DNA from: Escherichia phage EJP2
DNA: 64,000 bases
Sequence record: OQ411014.1
Reading direction: 5' to 3' (one strand)
Of this stretch, positions 6,014-59,354 are shown piece after piece. Numbering within the stretch: the first letter of the stretch is position 1; each line of letters starts with the position of its first letter. The position numbers and the translations under genes are program-made. The notes below the pieces were generated by a model, which ran no database searches, was not told the origin of the DNA, and was given only the letters and a program-made list of their open reading frames with translations.

Positions 6014-6532
6014 ATGGATGATAAAAAATCAAAGATGGATATACACTTTTCATCTAAAGCTCAAACTTGGAATACTCCAAGAGATTTATGGAATAAAATA
6101 AATGCAGTATGGAAGTTCACTCTAGATGCTGCGTGTTTAGAAAATAGTGCCTTGTGCGAAAAGTACTTCACTCCTGAAGACGATTCATTAGAACAGGACT
6201 GGGGTGATAACATAGTATGGCTTAACCCACCCTATAACGACCTCAAGACTTGGCTATCGAAGGCAGTACAGGAATATAAGAAAGGCTCTACAGTTGTCAT
6301 TCTGGTCCCTTCTAGGACGGATACAAAGGCATTCCAGGACTATGCTTCTAAAGAATGTTCGTGTATTTGTTTTATTAAGGGAAGACTCAAGTTCTTTGAT
6401 CCAGCTAGACCACCTGATGCGAGGGCAGACCCAGCACCATTCCCTAGCTGTTTGATAGTACTGGATGATGATCTTACACAAGAGAAAATCGATTTTCTAA
6501 AAACTCTAGGTCAGGTAATGAAGAATGTCTAA
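6014..6532 (+). CDS. DNA N6-adenine methyltransferase (phage Dam-type)
   Basis: NPPY motif (VWLNPPYNDLKTW) typical of amino-methyltransferases; size fits small phage Dam family. Confidence 0.6.
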   Translation: MDDKKSKMDIHFSSKAQTWNTPRDLWNKINAVWKFTLDAACLENSALCEKYFTPEDDSLEQDWGDNIVWLNPPYNDLKTWLSKAVQEYKKGSTVVILVPSRTDTKAFQDYASKECSCICFIKGRLKFFDPARPPDARADPAPFPSCLIVLDDDLTQEKIDFLKTLGQVMKNV

Positions 6533-13771: not shown

Positions 13772-14506
13772 ATGTTAGATCGTATAAAATTTGCCCAGGA
13801 GATGGCGAATGAGCTAAACAAATCAAATTTCCAAACTGTATCACCTATTATGGCTGAGTATGCTACTGCATATGCAACAGATGGAGTTCAGTGTGGACAG
13901 GCGAATATGTTAGCGGACGTGTACAGTACTGTGCAGAGTAAGCAATTCTCTGTTAAGACGTACAAAGATAAATTCGTATCTTCATTCATGAAGGGTGAGA
14001 TTGCAGAAGATCGTGAGTTCACAGATCCTATCATTGAGCGTAGGATTTCTGGGGTGGCGAATCCGAATGCTGATCCATCGTTAGTCTTTGAGGAAGTACT
14101 GAATGATATTCGAGACAATGAACGCAGAAGTCTAAACCACTACGGTATTAATTCCACTGGAACAGTACTGTTAGGATTCAGCGAAGATGATGATTATTTT
14201 TACTTTCGTCTAACTGAATATGATTATGTGTATGATGCTCCCGCTTCAGTACAAGAGAAGACCTTCACAGAACGTAGTAAAAACTACCTAAAACATACAG
14301 GAAATCGTTGCGGAATCGAATGCTACAACACTGAAGGTGTTATGGTGTACGAATGGGTTCACCCGAACAATCAGGCTTATACACGCTGTCTGAAGAAGCG
14401 GTACGACCTACGTGATGCTGATTCTATGTATTTCAAAATCAAGAAGCAGAAGTACACCAGACCTGATGATAATGCATTGTTGGATATGGTTAGTATTCAC
14501 TTCTAA
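13772..14506 (+). CDS. hypothetical protein
   Basis: 244-aa ORF with RBS AAGGAG. Confidence 0.55.
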   Translation: MLDRIKFAQEMANELNKSNFQTVSPIMAEYATAYATDGVQCGQANMLADVYSTVQSKQFSVKTYKDKFVSSFMKGEIAEDREFTDPIIERRISGVANPNADPSLVFEEVLNDIRDNERRSLNHYGINSTGTVLLGFSEDDDYFYFRLTEYDYVYDAPASVQEKTFTERSKNYLKHTGNRCGIECYNTEGVMVYEWVHPNNQAYTRCLKKRYDLRDADSMYFKIKKQKYTRPDDNALLDMVSIHF

Positions 14507-14515
14507 ATCAATTAT

Positions 14516-14545
14516 GCAGTACTGCGATTGTAGTACTGCTTTTTT
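14516..14545 (+). terminator. intrinsic terminator with AGTACT-containing arms
   Basis: GCAGTACT...AGTACTGC stem followed by a T6 run. Confidence 0.6.
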
Positions 14546-14556
14546 CTGGAGATGCT

Positions 14557-15111
14557 ATGAATAATCTTGAGTTCGTTAAACACTTGGCTAATAAAGTTGA
14601 TACAATCGCACAGAAACATATTGACACTCAAAGTTCAATACCTATAAAATTAGCGATTCCTCATGATAATATGGAACTGTTCGATAGATTCTTTTCTGTT
14701 CGAGGCCGCCACGATAAAGATAGATATCTTTTACTCGACACTGACCGGAATGCTTTTCAGTACTCAACACCTACGTTTCCTGGAATTTTCATGAAAGTGT
14801 CTGATGGATTGTACCTTACGTACTCACCACCAGATATATCACAGACTATGATTGGATTGGATTCTAGGGTATTACTATTTCAGCCACGCAATCCAAGTGA
14901 TGTATATGATCCGTATGAATTCTTGACTGAAGAAATGCACTTCCAGGCATCTACAGTACTGGATATTCCGAGCATAGAAACTCTAAGAGAAATGCTTGAT
15001 ATTGTTGAGTTTTTGATTGAAAGTGAATTCAAATTTAGATGTTCAATGGACTACGATGATTACCAGAGTATTCAGATTGGTCGTTTTTATAATTACGCAA
15101 TGCAGGAATAA
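14557..15111 (+). CDS. paralogous early-gene family member
   Basis: motif EEMHFQASTVLDIP. Confidence 0.55.
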   Translation: MNNLEFVKHLANKVDTIAQKHIDTQSSIPIKLAIPHDNMELFDRFFSVRGRHDKDRYLLLDTDRNAFQYSTPTFPGIFMKVSDGLYLTYSPPDISQTMIGLDSRVLLFQPRNPSDVYDPYEFLTEEMHFQASTVLDIPSIETLREMLDIVEFLIESEFKFRCSMDYDDYQSIQIGRFYNYAMQE

Positions 15112-15115
15112 CCAA

Positions 15116-15727
15116 ATGAAGAATCTAGATAAATTTGAAGACCTTATCAGTACTGCAAAAGCGTTCGGGTATTATAATTTCATCCAACGCTTTGGCCTCA
15201 AAGAAGAAAGTAACCGTTTCTGTAAAGTATATCGTGGTATCTGTACTGAAGATTCGGAGTATCAGTTCTTGATTGGAACTATGCGTTCTAGTGGTGGGAT
15301 TACATACATCGTTGAAGATAATAAAACAGGTGAGTACTTGAACATGTTCGCTCTTCGGGCAGAAGGTGAATCTGAACTTACTGCGATGTTTAAAGACTGG
15401 ACACGACTATCATACAAATACGATAAGTTCAACATCTACAACTACGAAACCAAGAAGATGGAAGTTGTACCGAACATTGACATGTCTGAAGATGAACATT
15501 TTCAGTTCATGCTATTGCATGATATTCCAGATTATGATACAGTACAGTCAGTACTGAAATATCATAAAGAAGTTTCACCAATGCTCAAAGAACATAAGCT
15601 ATTCAATATCATCACGTACACGATGCCTGATTTTGATTTCACAAAGATGAAAATCAAACCTGAAGTAATTGACACGTGTATGGATTTGATACCTGAATCA
15701 TCTTTATACAAACACAAGGATATATAA
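15116..15727 (+). CDS. paralogous early-gene family member
   Basis: start set to the ATG at 15116 just after the upstream stop (track ORF begins 15017); motif EDEHFQFMLLHDIP. Confidence 0.5.
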   Translation: MKNLDKFEDLISTAKAFGYYNFIQRFGLKEESNRFCKVYRGICTEDSEYQFLIGTMRSSGGITYIVEDNKTGEYLNMFALRAEGESELTAMFKDWTRLSYKYDKFNIYNYETKKMEVVPNIDMSEDEHFQFMLLHDIPDYDTVQSVLKYHKEVSPMLKEHKLFNIITYTMPDFDFTKMKIKPEVIDTCMDLIPESSLYKHKDI

Positions 15728-16866
15728 TGACTACAATGCGTGAACTATATGACGATTTGAATGCATTAGTATCTGATGCTTTCTATCACAAAGATTTCGT
15801 TAGTAAAGGCTCTGGTACGTACCGGATTTTCTCGTACCGTCTAGCGAGTGCTGCTGACTTCGAAGAACGTAATGCCCTTGAGTCACGTGGTATTATGTTC
15901 GAGATTGATGCAGATACTAAAGAGCCAATTCGTATTGCTTCTCGGACTATGAAGAAGTTTTTCAATGCAGGGGAAACCCAAGAATTACAGTTCAAGAAGG
16001 ACGTACCATTCAGTACTATCAAGTGCGTAATGCCTAAGTTGGATGGTTCTGTTATTGCAACCTTCATGGACAATGATGGAATTATTCGTACTAAATCAAA
16101 CTCTTCGTTGGAGTCTGAGCACGCGTATTACAGTACTGAAATGATTCACGCCAATGATAAGTTACACGATGCAATCATTTGTGCTGAAGCTGCTGGTTAT
16201 ACTGTAATTATGGAATTTACTTCACCTGAGTACCGGATTATTCTTCCTTACCAGAAAGATGAACTAACTGTATTGCGTATCATTCATCGTGAAAGTGGTG
16301 AAAGCATTATGGGTTCTGACTTGAAGGAGAAGTTCCCAGTACTGTATGAGTTTTCGGTATTTGGTGATAAAGACATTCATGAATCATTCCCTGTTCGCAG
16401 TACTTTAGTACAGAGTATTGCTGCTGTTCGTGAAATGGAAGAGATTGAGGGATATGTTGTAGTACTACAAGATGGCACTACATTCAAGCTCAAGACGGAT
16501 TGGTATTGCAATTTACATTTTACCAAAGATAGTATTATCATTGATTCTCGACTATTCAAGGCAGTACTGGATGGTAGTTCAGATGATTTACGTCAATTGT
16601 TTGAAAATGATGAATATGCACTAAAAAAAGTCGAAAAAATGGAAAATTTGATTTTTTTGTGCTATAATAAGTTAGAAGAGGATGTGACTACTTTTTACGA
16701 AAAGTACAAGCACCTTGATCAAAAAACGTATGCTATGAAGGTGTTGGGTGAATTATCGAAAGATATGAACCGACAAGGACTTGCATTCAACTTGTACAAT
16801 GGTAAACCTGTTGATTACAAAGAAGTACTACTAAAGTACATGAAGAACGTGTTAGAAGGATTCTGA
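15727..16866 (+). CDS. rnlA: RNA ligase 1 (T4 RnlA-like)
   Basis: N-terminal TYRIFSY...RGIMFE...RIASR.MKKFFN and the lysine motif KLDGS match my recollection of T4 Rnl1; 379 aa. Confidence 0.85.
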   Translation: MTTMRELYDDLNALVSDAFYHKDFVSKGSGTYRIFSYRLASAADFEERNALESRGIMFEIDADTKEPIRIASRTMKKFFNAGETQELQFKKDVPFSTIKCVMPKLDGSVIATFMDNDGIIRTKSNSSLESEHAYYSTEMIHANDKLHDAIICAEAAGYTVIMEFTSPEYRIILPYQKDELTVLRIIHRESGESIMGSDLKEKFPVLYEFSVFGDKDIHESFPVRSTLVQSIAAVREMEEIEGYVVVLQDGTTFKLKTDWYCNLHFTKDSIIIDSRLFKAVLDGSSDDLRQLFENDEYALKKVEKMENLIFLCYNKLEEDVTTFYEKYKHLDQKTYAMKVLGELSKDMNRQGLAFNLYNGKPVDYKEVLLKYMKNVLEGF

Positions 16867-16895
16867 CATAGTAATAGCTGAACAGGGAGTAGTTC

Positions 16896-17135
16896 ATGGC
16901 TAACAAACCGAAGTACCAATTGAAGAAGGGTGAAGTACGTACACCGGAAGAGCAGAGAAGGATTTTAGAAGAAATCGATTCTTTACAGCATGAACGCTCC
17001 CGCAAAGGAGTTAAGAAAAGTGCTAAGAGGATTGCAAACACATTTGGAGTCTCAAGTACTGCATATAAAAAGGAACGTAAGCCCAAAAAGAAAAGAGACA
17101 GAATATACGATATAGGAAGATATGCTCGTGAATGA
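16896..17135 (+). CDS. small basic protein, possible DNA-binding
   Basis: 79 aa, highly K/R-rich. Confidence 0.5.
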   Translation: MANKPKYQLKKGEVRTPEEQRRILEEIDSLQHERSRKGVKKSAKRIANTFGVSSTAYKKERKPKKKRDRIYDIGRYARE

Positions 17136-17343
17136 TACAGTTATTCTTGAAACAGTAATGTATAAAGATAAAACTTATTATGCGGTGACTAACATATCCA
17201 GTGCTCAACGCACTAAGTACGTTCAACAACTAAAGGCAGTAGGTGATACTGTCTTTGTTATTGACAATTTGTTATTCATTGATGAAATGGGTTTATTCAA
17301 TATTAGTTTATTCGACACAGAAACAGCATTTTCAATTCGCTAA
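17122..17343 (+). CDS. hypothetical small protein
   Basis: 73-aa ORF. Confidence 0.45.
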   Translation: MLVNDTVILETVMYKDKTYYAVTNISSAQRTKYVQQLKAVGDTVFVIDNLLFIDEMGLFNISLFDTETAFSIR

Positions 17344-17360
17344 CAACTAGGAGATATATC

Positions 17361-17582
17361 ATGAAAGTTCAAATTATGCATAGTGTTGTCCAGGACATGT
17401 CTGTGGTGAAGTTTAGTACTCTAAGTGATTATTTCCGTTGTATCGAATTTATGGATACTAACGGTATACTGTGGGAACCAGTGAAGTACAGTTCCAGAAA
17501 CGATACCGCTAGTATTCGCGTTGATGAGGTAGCGTTGAATAAAATTTGTAAACGATATGGAGTTCAGAAATGCCTAAACTAG
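17361..17582 (+). CDS. hypothetical small protein
   Basis: 73-aa ORF with RBS GGAG. Confidence 0.5.
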   Translation: MKVQIMHSVVQDMSVVKFSTLSDYFRCIEFMDTNGILWEPVKYSSRNDTASIRVDEVALNKICKRYGVQKCLN

Positions 17583-18499
17583 TACTGACAGTTGGATTGC
17601 CTGGGTGCGGGAAAAGTACTTGGGCTACAGAAGAAGTAAAGAAATCCAAACGCAAAACTGTCATTCTAAATCGTGATGATATTCGTGAAACGATGTTCGG
17701 TGGTAACTGGGAATATCGTTATAGTAACGAGAACGAAAAATACGTCCAGAATACTCTCGCTTTTCAAGCCCAAGAAGCAGTGAAAAATGGCTGGGATATT
17801 ATCGTTGCAAATACTAATCTCAACCCAAAAGAACAAAACATGTGGAGTACTTTTGCAAAGGAGAATTCATATACCTTAGTACATCAGGACTTCTTCAAGG
17901 AGTTCAAGAAAGGTAAATCCTTTGTGCATGATTACTTCGCAATCAATGCTTTCGTGAAACATTGTAAAGAACGTAACCTAAAACGTTTGAAGTCTGTTCA
18001 AGAAAGTGTAATTGACCAAATGGCAACTTCGTACTATTACAGTACTGTTACGCCTCCACCAGTGATTGAAGGTGATGGTCTAAAATATTACATCGTAGAT
18101 ATTGACGGAACTCTAGCACATATGTTAGATTATCGTTCACCCTATGATGAAACAAAAGTTCATCTTGATGTACCTGATGAGTTCGTAATTTCAGTACTGC
18201 ACGCTCTTGTAAAAGACCCGTCAGTACGTATTATCCTCATGAGTGGTCGTCACGTCACCTGTAAAGAGCTAACACAAGAATGGTTAGCGAAGCATTCAGT
18301 ACCGTATCATGAGCTTCATATGCGTGCTGCGGACGATGTACGAGGGGACGATGTGGTGAAATATGAGTTGTATATGCAAGAAGTATACAACAAAAACAAA
18401 CGAGTCCAAGTTGTGTTCGATGACCGTCAAAAAGTTGTGAACACATGGCGTGAGTTGCTTGGCCTCAAAACCTTCCAGGTACAGCCTGGAAATTTCTAG
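17570..18499 (+). CDS. pseT: polynucleotide 5'-kinase / 3'-phosphatase (T4 Pnk-like)
   Basis: P-loop GLPGCGKSTWA at the N-terminus, HAD phosphatase motif YIVDIDGTLA and C-terminal FDDRQKVV; 309 aa. Confidence 0.85.
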   Translation: MPKLVLTVGLPGCGKSTWATEEVKKSKRKTVILNRDDIRETMFGGNWEYRYSNENEKYVQNTLAFQAQEAVKNGWDIIVANTNLNPKEQNMWSTFAKENSYTLVHQDFFKEFKKGKSFVHDYFAINAFVKHCKERNLKRLKSVQESVIDQMATSYYYSTVTPPPVIEGDGLKYYIVDIDGTLAHMLDYRSPYDETKVHLDVPDEFVISVLHALVKDPSVRIILMSGRHVTCKELTQEWLAKHSVPYHELHMRAADDVRGDDVVKYELYMQEVYNKNKRVQVVFDDRQKVVNTWRELLGLKTFQVQPGNF

Positions 18500-18508
18500 G
18501 AGTGATAT

Positions 18509-18895
18509 ATGCTCGTAATTCGAATCGGCAACGAAGAACGTGAAATCCGACTTGTGGAAACAATTGATAGTACTCAATATTTCGTACTCAAGAATGAAGT
18601 TAGTTCTGTTTCTCTAGTTGAAGCAGTTGACGACCTTTGCATTTCTCTGTATAGTGGTGGTATTGACACACTTGAAGAAGCAATCTGGATTGAAGCTGCA
18701 TACCTATCAGAAACATATGGCGTGTGGACATTTGATGAAGTTGATACAACTAAAGAAGCTACACGCTTGACGGAGTTCATGAACGATCTGATTGATGGTG
18801 TAGAGGAAGATGATCCTTTATATCAGCACGCACATTATACGGTTCAAGAAATCCAAGAAATAATCTCAACAAATCTAAAATATAAGGAAGAATAA
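18509..18895 (+). CDS. hypothetical protein
   Basis: 128-aa acidic ORF. Confidence 0.5.
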   Translation: MLVIRIGNEEREIRLVETIDSTQYFVLKNEVSSVSLVEAVDDLCISLYSGGIDTLEEAIWIEAAYLSETYGVWTFDEVDTTKEATRLTEFMNDLIDGVEEDDPLYQHAHYTVQEIQEIISTNLKYKEE

Positions 18896-18896
18896 T

Positions 18897-19253
18897 ATGA
18901 GCATTACAGTACTATTTGGTCTAGACAACGTTGACATTTTCGATGCAGTTGCAAAAGCACAAGACGTTGATGTTGCTGGGATGGTGGTTTCTTATGGTAA
19001 CGTCCAAGGTGAAACTATCGAGATTTATGGTGAACAAACAGTACTGAAAGTTGCTAGATTAGCAGAATTCAACGGTACTGCATTGACTGTCTATACTGAC
19101 GGTACTAAAGAGTTCATCGATGTTGCTAAGTTCATTCCTGTGTGTGAGCCTGTTGCAGCAGATAAGATTGGTGAACTAGTATTTGATCAAACTGAACTAC
19201 CATTTGCTGTAGCATTAGTTCGTGGTGTTCATCGTTTAGTTCACGTAATCTAA
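18897..19253 (+). CDS. hypothetical protein
   Basis: 118-aa ORF. Confidence 0.5.
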   Translation: MSITVLFGLDNVDIFDAVAKAQDVDVAGMVVSYGNVQGETIEIYGEQTVLKVARLAEFNGTALTVYTDGTKEFIDVAKFIPVCEPVAADKIGELVFDQTELPFAVALVRGVHRLVHVI

Positions 19254-19263
19254 TTTCAAATAC

Positions 19264-19293
19264 AGTACTGCTATTGTGGCAGTACTTTTTTTG
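19264..19293 (+). terminator. intrinsic terminator with AGTACT-containing arms
   Basis: AGTACTGC...GCAGTACT stem followed by a T7 run. Confidence 0.6.
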
Positions 19294-19301
19294 AGGTATA
19301 T

Positions 19302-19544
19302 ATGAGTAGTATTCAAAAGTTCCAAATGCTTGAAGGTACTCTAAAGAGCTTCACTGAAGTTGCTAATGATATGCGTACTGCATTACTCGGAACTAAAATT
19401 CAGTTACACGATGATACTCGTGTATATGAAGTACAAAGTATTTCATGGGATTATTCTGGTTCATTGACTATTGCAATTGAAGAATTACCGCGTGCATATT
19501 CAGTGAAGCGTGTTAGTCTAAATGAAATCTCTCGTGTTCTATAA
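19302..19544 (+). CDS. hypothetical protein
   Basis: 80-aa ORF with RBS GAGG. Confidence 0.5.
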   Translation: MSSIQKFQMLEGTLKSFTEVANDMRTALLGTKIQLHDDTRVYEVQSISWDYSGSLTIAIEELPRAYSVKRVSLNEISRVL

Positions 19545-19555
19545 AGGATAATCAA

Positions 19556-19723
19556 ATGTTTACAGCAATTCTAGGTTTTGTATTCTGGTTGGCAATGGTT
19601 GGTGCAGTAGTGTTTCAGGCACAAACACAAAATCGTAAAATCGCATTTTGGGTAGTGTGTGCACTAATTGTAACTCCAGTAATCCCAGCGAGTATACTCT
19701 ACTTCTTAGGTCGAAGGAAGTGA
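19556..19723 (+). CDS. small membrane protein (55 aa; below the ORF-track length cut-off)
   Basis: ATG at 19556 after RBS AAGGA; hydrophobic MFTAILGFVFWLAMVGAVVF...; stop TGA at 19721-19723. Confidence 0.4.
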   Translation: MFTAILGFVFWLAMVGAVVFQAQTQNRKIAFWVVCALIVTPVIPASILYFLGRRK

Positions 19724-19947
19724 CACTACTATTACTGATGTATATATGTGGATTCACTTCATCAGTACTAATATCTGAGTTTGAATATCATTTATACAAT
19801 GTTGAATGTACCAGAGTGGATTATTGTTATATAATAGTGTATTCACTCCTTGGTTGGTACGTTATGATACCTTGGATTGTCATTGACAATCTTTGGAAAT
19901 ATAAAAGAAAGGGTTAATACCCTTTATTAATTACATAAGGAATTATC

Positions 19948-20298
19948 ATGAACAATGCACAAGCCCAGTCTGCATTAGGTAGTATTGAGACGTTCATAGA
20001 GTCATTGGTTCAAATAAAACAACGTGAACTTGACCGCATAACTGAGAAAGTATCTAACTTGGAAGTACAAGTAACTCCAGAAATTATGTTAGAACTTGCG
20101 TGTGTCTTTTATCACAAAGACTATGATCTTACTGATTGTAAAGTTACTAGTGTTAAAGTACATCAAGTCTTGTACACTGAAGAAGAATGTATTGGTTTTA
20201 TCTTAGTAGTACTGGTAGAAATGCCGGACGAAACTATTGACAAATATTATTTGTGTCCAGATGATATTCATAAATTGAAGTTTATTGATGAGGAATAA
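19948..20298 (+). CDS. hypothetical protein
   Basis: 116-aa ORF with RBS AAGGA. Confidence 0.5.
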   Translation: MNNAQAQSALGSIETFIESLVQIKQRELDRITEKVSNLEVQVTPEIMLELACVFYHKDYDLTDCKVTSVKVHQVLYTEEECIGFILVVLVEMPDETIDKYYLCPDDIHKLKFIDEE

Positions 20299-20729: not shown

Positions 20730-21955
20730 TGAAATTACCTACAGAGTGGTATGTTGCTCGAAGCATGAACAGTACTGAAGAGATTTTAGGCTTTTTGGTT
20801 GATGCATCGAGTAAAACATCAAAAACGTTTGAAAGTAAGAAAGAAAAGGCTGATTACTGGGCGAGAAACCGTACTAGTAATGGTAAGCTAGAAGGGATTT
20901 ATGTTAGTAATGAACCCCAAGAAGGTTTTCAGATTGTAACCAACGTTGGTCGTTATCGTACCAAGAACGTTCTATGGCGTGTATGGCATCCAGAAGGTTT
21001 TGAGTTCGAAATCACTTCTGACAACTTCTGTGATTTACTCCAGACTAACACTATCATTGATGGTGAAATTCAGGGTAAATTATTCTTGACTTCAGATAAG
21101 AAGTTAGTGAATGAGAAAACCAAACTCTTTGCAGATCGTATTGCTAAAGAAGAAAAAGCCAATAATATCAATGCTTCAGTAAAAGAATTGAAAATTGGTC
21201 AAGGCATTCGTATTGAAACTGTATCCAAAAGTACATCACCTGATTTTATCTATATGGGTAAAGTGCACTGTATCAGTACTCATGCTAATTACAAATACCG
21301 TATCAAAGATAAGAGTTCCTTAGTACACGTACTGAAACGTGTAATTGATGGTGCGTACTTCTTGACTGCAAAGATTACTCACGACTTTATTCGTGTTGAT
21401 CAGTACGATGTAAAAATCACACCAGCAGAAGTGTGCAAAGAAGTGAATGCATATTTCAAAGATGTATTTGACTATAACAATGCAGCTATGACACATCTAT
21501 GTCCGGTGTATACCTATGTTACTCCGTTGTGTGTGAGTCCAAAGCCATTCAAGAAAGATGACATGCACATTGAATTCACACAAGTTCCTGGTAATAGTAT
21601 TACCCGTTTCGATGGTTCTACACAGATTCGTTATGAACAAGACGGTGAACAGTACTGGGTATTTGGATATCTACGTCCATCCAAAAACACTTCATACGAT
21701 TCACACGTTTATAATATTGTGTTGACAACTAGTACTGGTGCAACTAAAATCTTCATGCGTAAATGCACAGTGAACGAACATGGTGTACTCAACCCCAATG
21801 CTGAATTGGGTAACATGTATAACTTCACGTACTGCACCGAATTTTATTCACCATGCAGTCGGCATATGCCAACATCTGAACTCGATGGCAAGAAGTGTTT
21901 AGTTCGGATTGATATTCCAGAATTTCTTGAAGTTGGACATTACACACTAAAATAA
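20729..21955 (+). CDS. hypothetical protein
   Basis: 408-aa ORF; ATGA overlap with the upstream gene. Confidence 0.55.
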   Translation: MKLPTEWYVARSMNSTEEILGFLVDASSKTSKTFESKKEKADYWARNRTSNGKLEGIYVSNEPQEGFQIVTNVGRYRTKNVLWRVWHPEGFEFEITSDNFCDLLQTNTIIDGEIQGKLFLTSDKKLVNEKTKLFADRIAKEEKANNINASVKELKIGQGIRIETVSKSTSPDFIYMGKVHCISTHANYKYRIKDKSSLVHVLKRVIDGAYFLTAKITHDFIRVDQYDVKITPAEVCKEVNAYFKDVFDYNNAAMTHLCPVYTYVTPLCVSPKPFKKDDMHIEFTQVPGNSITRFDGSTQIRYEQDGEQYWVFGYLRPSKNTSYDSHVYNIVLTTSTGATKIFMRKCTVNEHGVLNPNAELGNMYNFTYCTEFYSPCSRHMPTSELDGKKCLVRIDIPEFLEVGHYTLK

Positions 21956-23941: not shown

Positions 23942-24634
23942 ATGTTTCATAACTCTATCAAAGCCAATGCATACGAAGAACCAACCAACATGACTATTCC
24001 AATCGTTGTTGAACAGACTCATAATGGTGAGCGTTCTTATGATTTACCATCTCGTTTGATGAACTCTCGTATCATCATGGTTGATACTGATTTCAACGAC
24101 CAGATGGCATATGTAATCAAAATGCAGTTGCTGTGGCTTGATAGTCAAAGTGCAGACCCAATCACTATGTACATCAACTCCCCTGGTGGTTCAGTACATG
24201 CTGGTTTAGGTATTGCTGATGTAGTTGCGAACCTTCGCTCTCCAGTACGCACTATCGTTATGGGTATGGCTGCATCGATGGGTTGTTACATGCAAAGTAC
24301 TATGGGTACTCCTGGTCTGCGTCTAGCAGGTAAACGTGCACAAATCATGGCACACCAAGTATCTTCTGGTACACAAGGTCTGATTCTAGACCAAGAGATT
24401 TCTCTGAATCATAGTAAGCGTTTGAACAAACTCTTGACTGAAGAGATTGCTGAAGCAGTAGGTATGCCGATTGAACAATTCCTTATTGACTGTAACCGCG
24501 ATTTGTGGTTAAATGCTGAAGAAGCATTGAACTACGGCACTAAAGGTTTCATCGATGGTATCTATCTGGGTAAACAAAACGAACAAGGCCAACTACTTGT
24601 CCAACGTCGTGGTGGTGTTGAGGAATGGGTGTAA
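23942..24634 (+). CDS. clpP: ClpP-family serine protease
   Basis: INSPGGSVHAG and catalytic-serine motif GMAASMG. Confidence 0.8.
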   Translation: MFHNSIKANAYEEPTNMTIPIVVEQTHNGERSYDLPSRLMNSRIIMVDTDFNDQMAYVIKMQLLWLDSQSADPITMYINSPGGSVHAGLGIADVVANLRSPVRTIVMGMAASMGCYMQSTMGTPGLRLAGKRAQIMAHQVSSGTQGLILDQEISLNHSKRLNKLLTEEIAEAVGMPIEQFLIDCNRDLWLNAEEALNYGTKGFIDGIYLGKQNEQGQLLVQRRGGVEEWV

Positions 24635-33860: not shown

Positions 33861-33884
33861 GGGAGTCTTAGTACTCCCTTTTTT
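33861..33884 (+). terminator. intrinsic terminator
   Basis: stem GGGAGT/ACTCCC followed by a T6 run. Confidence 0.55.
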
Positions 33885-58666: not shown

Positions 58667-58671
58667 TATTT

Positions 58672-58701
58672 TTGAGATGAATGAAAATTTTGTGATATAA
58701 T
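58672..58701 (+). promoter_or_regulatory. sigma70-type promoter with extended -10 (TGTGATATAAT)
   Basis: TTGAGA 58672-58677 and TATAAT 58696-58701; near-identical to the promoter at 4738-4767. Confidence 0.55.
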
Positions 58702-58707
58702 GTATAG

Positions 58708-59235
58708 TACGGATAACACCTATGTTGAATGTCTTTGATAAACAGAACCTGATCCACTCGAAAATGTAGAGGGCAGATGAGTAGAACATTCACTACGAAG
58801 TGCAAATGAAACCCGTCAGTAATAAAGCGTAAGTGCGGTCATACAAACGAGACGTAAGACACACGCGACACGGCAAAGCGGCACTATAAAAGCGATAAGA
58901 AAACATATTCGCTCTTGATAGACTTATGAGGCATACTCACCCAGTTGAAAGGGAGTCTCTTTACGGAGAGACAGCAGTATTTGTTGCTGAATTAGCAAGT
59001 ACTGTAAGCGTGTGAGGAACACGACCGTTGTATGCAGACTGTAGTAGCTGGAAACAGGACAACCCGCCAGCGTTGCTACTTTTATTTGTACGGGAAAGAT
59101 CCGTCCAAAAAGTAGTGAATCTACAAATTCAGATTGGTAAGACTACCAGCGTCAGGATATTCCTGATTTTTTTTCGGCCCTCCCTTGTGGGGGGATGGAA
59201 TTGGATCAACAAACCTCGTCAAGTATAATATGAAT
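58708..59235 (+). ncRNA. candidate structured noncoding RNA, copy B (unknown class)
   Basis: 688-nt intergenic gap with promoter; shares sequence blocks with locus A and the covarying stem GCUGG/CCAGC at 59047-59071; the only ORF (59028-59228) starts with TTG and its frame is not conserved in copy A. Confidence 0.45.
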
Positions 59236-59354
59236 AGTATTAGTACTTAATAATTCAAATGAATTGAGAGATATGAGATGAGCGATAGCGAAATCGAATA
59301 TGTCTCAATTCTTGGCTTACGCAGTAAGCCAACGAAACATTACAGGAGCTTATC

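Follow-up and report, generated by a model that had tools for sequence, protein, structure and literature searches.

Two AGTACT-armed hairpins at the borders of the rnlA-pnk region of Escherichia phage EJP2 as probable intrinsic terminators

Two inverted repeats lie in short gaps on either side of a run of genes that includes an RNA ligase gene (rnlA) and a polynucleotide kinase gene (pnk) in a stretch of 64,000 nucleotides from Escherichia phage EJP2 (sequence record OQ411014.1; the whole stretch is called the window here). The source phage is a T4-related jumbo myovirus of the Rak2/121Q/GAP32 group. The arms of both repeats contain a short word, AGTACT, that is strongly over-represented across the window, which raises the question of whether the hairpins are ordinary signals for the end of transcription or whether the word acts genome-wide through such structures. 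An original prediction, made from the letters alone, had described both as intrinsic terminators and had seen in them a link between the genome-wide motif and regulatory hairpins. The reading that we favor, with a probability of roughly 0.7, is that both hairpins are intrinsic terminators for the host RNA polymerase, the stems of which co-opted the abundant AGTACT word. Considered separately, the proposal that both are real Rho-independent terminators is very probable.

Structure and position of the two hairpins

Both inverted repeats were confirmed where they had been predicted, at 14516-14545 and 19264-19292. Site 1 consists of GCAGTACT (14516-14523), the spacer gcgattgt and AGTACTGC (14532-14539), followed by TTTTTT (14540-14545). 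Site 2 has the arms in the opposite order, AGTACTGC (19264-19271), tattgtg and GCAGTACT (19279-19286), followed by TTTTTT (19287-19292). The six T's expected at site 1 are present, whereas the seven expected at site 2 are reached only by counting the last T of the arm, since position 19293 is a G. Folding of the plus-strand RNA yielded GCAGUACUGC-GAUU-GUAGUACUGC for terminator 1 (14516-14539; -16.0 kcal/mol) and AGUACUGCUA-UUG-UGGCAGUACU for terminator 2 (19264-19286; -12.2 kcal/mol). Each stem has 10 pairs, and at both sites the extension to this length is provided by one G·U and one further pair; 5 of the 10 pairs at site 1 and 4 of the 10 at site 2 are G-C. The loops had been predicted to be alike and to measure 8 and 7 nt. 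Their likeness holds (gATTGT at site 1, tATTGTg at site 2), but the folded RNA has loops of 4 nt (GAUU) and 3 nt (UUG). Over CAGTACTGC-N-ATTGT, the two sites match at 14 of 15 positions, 9 of which belong to the word itself.

The word copies involved are CAGTACTG at 14517-14524 and AGTACTG at 14532-14538 in terminator 1, and CAGTACTG at 19263-19270 and CAGTACT at 19280-19286 in terminator 2. Strictly speaking, site 1 is a direct repeat (TGCAGTACTGC / TGTAGTACTGC, 14-nt spacing), and pairing of its arms depends entirely on the self-complementary AGTACT core and on the GC in front of the first copy.

In a shuffle test, 0 of 200 shuffled sequences folded as well as site 1 (z = -7.0) and 1 of 200 as well as site 2 (z = -4.8). 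In stability, both are near the top of the 15 intergenic terminator-like hairpins of the window. The antisense folds were weaker at both sites (8 pairs each; -11.7 kcal/mol at site 1) because the G·U pairs turn into C·A mismatches, and the T-run is present in the plus sense only. At terminator 2, pairing is also possible between the T6 tract and an A-rich stretch, TCAAATA, at 19256-19262.

Each hairpin starts 9 to 10 nt past a stop codon (TAA 14504-14506 and TAA 19251-19253), within an intergenic gap of 50 nt at site 1 and 48 nt at site 2. The T-run abuts a Shine-Dalgarno site (GGAG 14548-14551; GAGG 19293-19296) that itself lies 5 nt before an ATG, so that each hairpin precedes a ribosome-binding site and start codon at a similar distance, as had been predicted. 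A promoter-like match was found in neither gap.

As marks of a Rho-independent terminator, we used a stem of at least 5 bp with several G-C pairs, a loop of 3 to 8 nt, a U/T tract 0 to 2 nt from the stem, and an intergenic position downstream of a stop codon on the transcribed strand. Both hairpins display the stem-loop, the U/T tract and the position, and a structure at these boundaries is conserved in relatives. Neither site matched a known RNA family in Rfam at either threshold, and no tRNAs were found.

In about 20 relatives, the homologue of the gene that precedes site 1 is directly followed by a hairpin with a T-run, and the stems are specific to the lineage: GCCCCG..CGGGGC in the GAP32/CBB group, GTACACG..CGTGTAC in the Munch group, GTCCAGTAC..GTACTGGAC in RaK2, GGGTACTT..AAGTACCC in XaC1 and GCCCAGT-actgca-ACTGGGC in Erwinia phage Hallingskeid. 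The 121Q type alone lacks a hairpin with a T-run at this boundary. At the other border, a terminator directly follows pnk in 121Q, Munch, GAP32, CBB, RaK2 and XaC1. The window and Hallingskeid have none right after pnk, and the next one stands two unrelated open reading frames (ORFs) later. The distal end of the rnlA-pnk block thus has a terminator in all relatives examined. Given these terminators at equivalent boundaries, both EJP2 hairpins sit at two conserved boundaries of the RNA-repair unit. As judged from these predicted structures, terminator positions are conserved in the Rak2-like clade while the stems turn over. In phage Kaldavass, a homing-endonuclease gene on the opposite strand (21036-21701) is inserted directly after pnk and shifts the post-pnk terminator by ~20 nt. 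PA5oct, a distant relative in the wider Rak2-related jumbo group, depends on the host RNA polymerase and has factor-independent terminators at stop sites seen by RNA sequencing (PMC7318152).

Anatomy, strand-specific extra pairs, stability, position and the terminators at equivalent boundaries in relatives all agree with the predicted intrinsic terminators. The hairpins resemble the canonical Rho-independent terminators of enterobacteria and T4-like phages in having a G+C-containing stem-loop, a loop of 3 to 4 nt and an immediate T-run, and in lying just after a stop codon on the coding strand, where the host RNA polymerase would putatively read them. They differ from them in their relatively A+T-rich stems (4 to 5 G-C of 10 pairs) and in that these stems come from a genome-wide over-represented word and not from arbitrary G+C-rich sequence.

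The AGTACT word and its relation to the hairpins

The original prediction had named AGTACTGC as the enriched palindrome. This sequence is not palindromic, and its 41 matches in the window (1.55 expected) form a minor subset of the AGTACT signal. The words that are truly enriched are AGTACT, with 283 copies per strand against 21.5 expected (~13-fold over, or about one per 226 bp), and the palindrome CAGTACTG, with 102 copies against 0.8 expected; AGTACTG reaches 312 copies on both strands against 11 expected. Of the AGTACT copies, 259 (~91%) lie wholly inside ORFs, in all three frames. The three reading frames hold 46, 37 and 7 copies of CAGTACTG, and the frame CAG-TAC-TGx is rare because it needs a Cys, Trp or stop codon. 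We therefore rejected codons or a protein motif as the source of the word. We also rejected a mutational drive of the very-short-patch repair type, because depletion was seen in no one-base neighbor of AGTACT or CAGTACTG, and all of these neighbors are graded upward.

The word bends codon-pair and dipeptide usage. Ser-Thr dipeptides are written AGT-ACT in 73% of cases (18% expected from codon usage) and Val-Leu dipeptides GTA-CTG in 42% (5% expected), and the dipeptides ST, QY and YC are 1.7- to 1.9-fold over-represented in the window proteins. Around the word, the sequence is roughly symmetric, with T-rich positions -2/-3 and A-rich positions +2/+3, so that the full consensus is a 14-bp palindrome, TTnCAGTACTGnAA. 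Such symmetry would suit a symmetric dimer that recognizes double-stranded DNA (dsDNA) better than a factor that recognizes a hairpin. Spacing of the copies is slightly more even than random (coefficient of variation, 0.81).

AGTACT enrichment is common to every Rak2-like genus examined (121Q, Hallingskeid, Munch, GAP32, Kaldavass, CBB, RaK2 and XaC1). In comparisons with four relatives, 28 to 37% of AGTACT sites are conserved, against 13 to 21% for any 6-mer; positions turn over between genera while density is maintained. The favored flanks vary by lineage, with CAGTACTG in some and AAGTACTT in GAP32 and CBB. A general T4-like feature was rejected as well, since 25 kb of T4 hold 3 copies against 8.5 expected. 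A full-text literature search returned no paper connecting AGTACT or CAGTACTG with Rak2-like phages; its matches were unrelated.

Other palindromes behave differently in the same DNA. GCGC is absent from the window (78 expected) and from every relative examined; the 25 kb of T4 contain 38 copies against 26 expected. The 6-bp palindromes CTGCAG, CTCGAG, AAGCTT, CCATGG, CAGCTG, AGGCCT and AGCGCT have zero copies in the window, where TTAA and GATC occur at 0.21 and 0.38 times expectation. Strong palindrome purging thus coexists with the 13-fold enrichment of one palindrome, AGTACT. A small Dam-family N6-adenine DNA methyltransferase is encoded at 6014-6532 on the plus strand (PF05869, E = 1.4e-28), and its gene adjoins a cytidyltransferase gene in all relatives examined; the enzyme is a candidate for acting on AGTACT or GTAC.

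Copies of the word do not stand close together more often than chance predicts. Pairs of AGTACT 9 to 20 nt apart number 14 in the window, against 14.1 expected under random placement, and clustering of the word into pairs was accordingly rejected. Twelve of these close pairs lie inside ORFs and two are intergenic, namely those at sites 1 and 2. Stability is highest in the two intergenic pairs (-16.0 and -12.7 kcal/mol, vs -5.1 to -10.8 kcal/mol for the other pairs), and an immediate T6 and the G-C plus G·U extension to 10 bp occur only there. Terminators in general make little use of the word. In the window, it forms the arms of 2 of the 15 intergenic plus-strand terminator-like hairpins, the other stems being unrelated and G+C-rich. 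In nine loci of the clade, AGTACT is found in 7 of 68 terminator-like hairpins, where 4.2 are expected from random segments (P = 0.13) and 3.4 under a hairpin-aware null (P = 0.05). GTAC or AGTACT is at or near background in the clade terminators, and we rejected its enrichment there. With ~91% of the copies standing singly in ORFs, the proposed link between the genome-wide motif and regulatory hairpins is not borne out.

Several further structures contain the word in other arrangements. In 121Q, AGGAATCCAGTACTGGATTCCT (24590-24611) is a perfect 22-nt palindrome with CAGTACTG at its apex and a GUAC loop. The word spans arm and loop of a terminator at 33861-33878 of the window (GGGAGTcttagtACTCCC) and at 17727-17746 of Hallingskeid (GCCCAGTactgcaACTGGGC). 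Another terminator-like hairpin of the window, at 59151-59167 (GTCAGGAtatTCCTGAT followed by T8), lies inside a region of ~690 nt (58667-59354) without a sizeable plus-strand ORF; a 111-aa minus-strand ORF overlaps its first ~120 nt, and Rfam gave no match for the region.

Orthologous hairpins were found in six Mimasvirus-like contigs, where a terminator with arms derived from AGTACTGC/GCAGTACT precedes a gene that starts MNNIREY..CRDDIFYF and whose protein is 40 to 57% identical. The 8 core pairs are intact in each of the six, but the loops and spacers have been scrambled. The arms are unchanged in three of the six, and four keep both AGTACT cores. All three arm substitutions give G·U pairs, and one of them turns AGTACT into AGTGCT. 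Substitutions of this kind match the prediction for an RNA hairpin and not that for a dsDNA recognition site, as far as the compared sequences tell. The original prediction had also hinted that the motif may be recognized as DNA or as RNA structure; the differing stems of the relatives, the G·U-only substitutions and the symmetric flanks, which fit a dimer site in dsDNA, argue against its being read as a structure.

Weighing the explanations

We propose that the host RNA polymerase would read both hairpins as canonical Rho-independent terminators on the plus strand, terminator 1 closing the gene upstream of the rnlA-pnk RNA-repair block and terminator 2 closing this block together with two lineage-specific ORFs. 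Some read-through at both is probable, because each T-run abuts the ribosome-binding site of the next gene. Each stem would consist of two neighboring AGTACT/CAGTACTG copies plus a G-C clamp and one G·U. Since AGTACT is self-complementary and one copy is met about every 226 bp, chance supplies ~14 hairpin-capable pairs per 64 kb. Pairs that fell into intergenic gaps would have been extended, stabilized and given a T-run, the abundant word being co-opted as raw material for terminator stems. The hairpins would then act as RNA, and the genome-wide role of the word would be a separate one, at the level of dsDNA.

A number of points weigh against this reading. From sequence we infer both that transcription would actually end at the two sites and that co-option would have run from the word to the terminator stem. 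No room for a promoter exists between terminator 1 and the next gene, so expression of the unit needs read-through or an internal promoter. Site 2 has no orthologue: its flanking ORFs, of 118 and 80 aa, have no homologues among 50,697 phage records, and the only related contig (the sole match in the protein-database search) is ~99% identical and therefore too close for covariation. The excess of word-containing terminators in the clade (7 vs 3.4) is borderline and may reflect a mild preference for the word in terminators. Furthermore, a scan of 2.9 million viral contigs for the pattern AGTACTGC-N3-10-GCAGTACT-TTT yielded 13 stretches, of which 8 are on Rak2-like jumbo contigs. Part of this concentration is expected, given that the word is common nowhere else; still, these arms with TTT recur more often than the co-option model needs. 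Lastly, the loop core AT(T/C)GT is present in three non-homologous word-armed hairpins (sites 1 and 2 and the hairpin at the 3′ end of gene 488 of 121Q), which hints at common descent or an extra constraint.

Common descent is the core of one alternative, in which the hairpins would be copies of a mobile or duplicated terminator cassette that provides short homology for ORF swapping in hyperplastic regions, so that arms and loops are alike by descent. Its model would be the promoter early stem-loops (PeSLs), composite terminator/promoter cassettes of T4-type phages (PMC2839356, PMC4122927) that mediate such exchange (PMC4122927). Like PeSLs, the EJP2 structures are intergenic stem-loops of a T4-related myovirus, and they may likewise be conserved in hyperplastic regions, beside unrelated ORFs. 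The ORFs around site 2, in the variable region that separates pnk from the DNA ligase gene, have no homologues, a word-armed hairpin occupies the same relative place in Hallingskeid, two unrelated ORFs after pnk, and site 2 is identical at 21 of 24 positions to the 121Q hairpin after gene 488, although the upstream ORFs are unrelated. The ORFs beside the similar-armed Hallingskeid and 121Q hairpins yielded no match in the pairs compared by BLASTP. The 14 of 15 positions shared by sites 1 and 2 point the same way, but the matching bases are mostly the abundant word, outside which only 5 to 6 loop bases agree. The EJP2 hairpins moreover lack a promoter half, the T-run directly abutting the Shine-Dalgarno site, and an extended conserved flank; their flanks are dissimilar, and there are only two copies in 64 kb. 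We regard such a cassette as unlikely.

Alternatively, the hairpins could serve two functions at once. As DNA, adjacent copies of the word would be bound by a genome-wide reader whose occupancy modulates termination and read-through, or acts as a roadblock, on either side of the RNA-repair unit. Strong DNA-level selection acts on the word, its symmetric flanks are typical of a dimer site, the word is in borderline excess in terminators, and in the Mimasvirus-like orthologues the arms persist to the extent described above despite only 40 to 57% identity of the downstream protein. There is, however, no known reader protein; AGTGCT in one orthologue keeps the RNA pair and breaks the DNA word; the stems at the site 1 boundary of relatives lack the word; and word pairs are clustered nowhere. 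Such modulation is rather improbable. The broader form of this idea, in which the AGTACT-family palindrome (TTnCAGTACTGnAA in this lineage) would be a genome-wide DNA signal for a dimeric phage or host reader, is doubtful to us. As DNA, the hairpins would then offer tandem reader sites at both ends of the RNA-repair operon; as RNA, they would be terminators, and reader occupancy would couple transcription-unit boundaries to the process served by the word. If true, the density of AGTACT and its influence on the proteome would be on a par with those of uptake sequences or Chi sites.

That the hairpins stabilize or process RNA, as protective 3′ stems after endonucleolytic cleavage, or tune translation of the next gene, would suit a position inside longer polycistronic transcripts, where they may lie, and only 8 to 6 nt upstream of the Shine-Dalgarno site. 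A T6 tract right after a strong stem is, however, the signature of intrinsic termination and superfluous for a stability element, and relatives retain the T-run as well, which makes this role very unlikely. Non-coding DNA makes up 9% of the window and should by chance hold ~1.3 of the 14 close pairs, so that word abundance alone predicts intergenic hairpins of some kind. Functionless chance structures are nevertheless barely credible, because only these two pairs combine the 10-bp extension, the lowest energies and the immediate T6, and because terminators stand at the equivalent boundaries in relatives.

Among known systems, repetitive extragenic palindromic (REP) elements and the bacterial interspersed mosaic elements (BIMEs) are also repeated palindromes able to form hairpins at gene 3′ ends. 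REP elements are restricted to intergenic DNA, whereas ~91% of the EJP2 word copies (259/283) lie inside ORFs. The closest precedent is the co-option of the DNA uptake sequence (DUS) of Neisseria and the uptake signal sequence (USS) of Pasteurellaceae, complementary pairs of which serve as terminator stems (Kingsford et al. 2007, PMC1852404). In both cases a short word occurs about once per kb or more often, chiefly within genes, and complementary pairs of it form terminator stems. In Neisseria, ~55% of high-confidence terminators contain a DUS, and close opposite-strand copies are in excess (PMC1852404); by contrast, AGTACT is found in just 2 of the 15 terminators of the EJP2 window and in 7 of the 68 of the clade loci, and word pairs are not in excess (14 vs 14.1). 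The EJP2 word is palindromic, so that, unlike DUS and USS, its copies pair in any orientation, and uptake by a competence machinery is inapplicable to a phage genome. The two hairpins are thus best filed as ordinary intrinsic terminators that happen to consist of an abundant self-complementary word.

The RNA-repair unit and its meaning for the phage group

The window is ~91% coding by a crude ORF set, and 99 of its 104 ORFs are on the plus strand. Hallingskeid is its sole megablast match, and the DNA ligase encoded farther downstream of the rnlA-pnk stretch is 76% identical to ligases of Escherichia Asteriusvirus phages. The gene upstream of terminator 1 (13772-14506, plus strand) encodes a 244-aa protein of PHROG 16105, of unknown function (E = 2.8e-124). 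Its homologues occur in 70 phage records, every one of them a Rak2-like jumbo phage, and the nearest relative is again Hallingskeid (78.7% amino acid identity). A single-protein scan of viral contigs with this gene gave no match; homologues in viral contigs were recovered by an alignment-based scan.

Nine co-directional plus-strand ORFs lie between the terminators (14557-19253) and would form a transcription unit or its distal part. They encode, in order, proteins of 184 aa (14557-15111; ATG 14557-14559) and 203 aa, the T4-type RNA ligase 1 RnlA (15727-16866; PHROG RNA ligase, E = 1e-97), proteins of 79, 73 and 73 aa, polynucleotide kinase (17570-18499; PHROG, E = 1.7e-91) and proteins of 128 and 118 aa. 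The rnlA-o79-o73a-o73b-pnk block is kept in all eight relatives compared; the 128- and 118-aa ORFs have no homologues in these eight loci. An 80-aa plus-strand ORF without homologues follows terminator 2 (19302-19544; ATG 19302-19304).

The stretch from pnk to the hydrolase and ligase genes (18509-20298, plus strand) is hyperplastic. It holds ORFs of 128, 118, 80 and 116 aa, none of which has a homologue in the eight related loci, and the corresponding interval of Hallingskeid spans ~7 kb with ~22 different ORFs. A 40-kb Logan contig from SRR10386367 is ~99% identical to this part of the window. It differs in a site 2 T-run that lacks 2 nt and in a pnk ORF called at 284 instead of 309 aa; these may be homopolymer-length differences or assembly errors.

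The finding on the two hairpins is itself of modest interest. It provides a useful annotation by delimiting the rnlA-pnk RNA-repair unit of an uncharacterized Rak2-like jumbo phage. The terminators do not explain the over-represented word, and an explanation should therefore be sought at the level of dsDNA. The AGTACT word, which is clade-wide and not reported in the literature searched, is the more interesting object, and its over-representation, together with the complete absence of GCGC across the clade, merits a study of its own. If a reader of AGTACT exists, the word would represent a new kind of genome-wide signal in phages.

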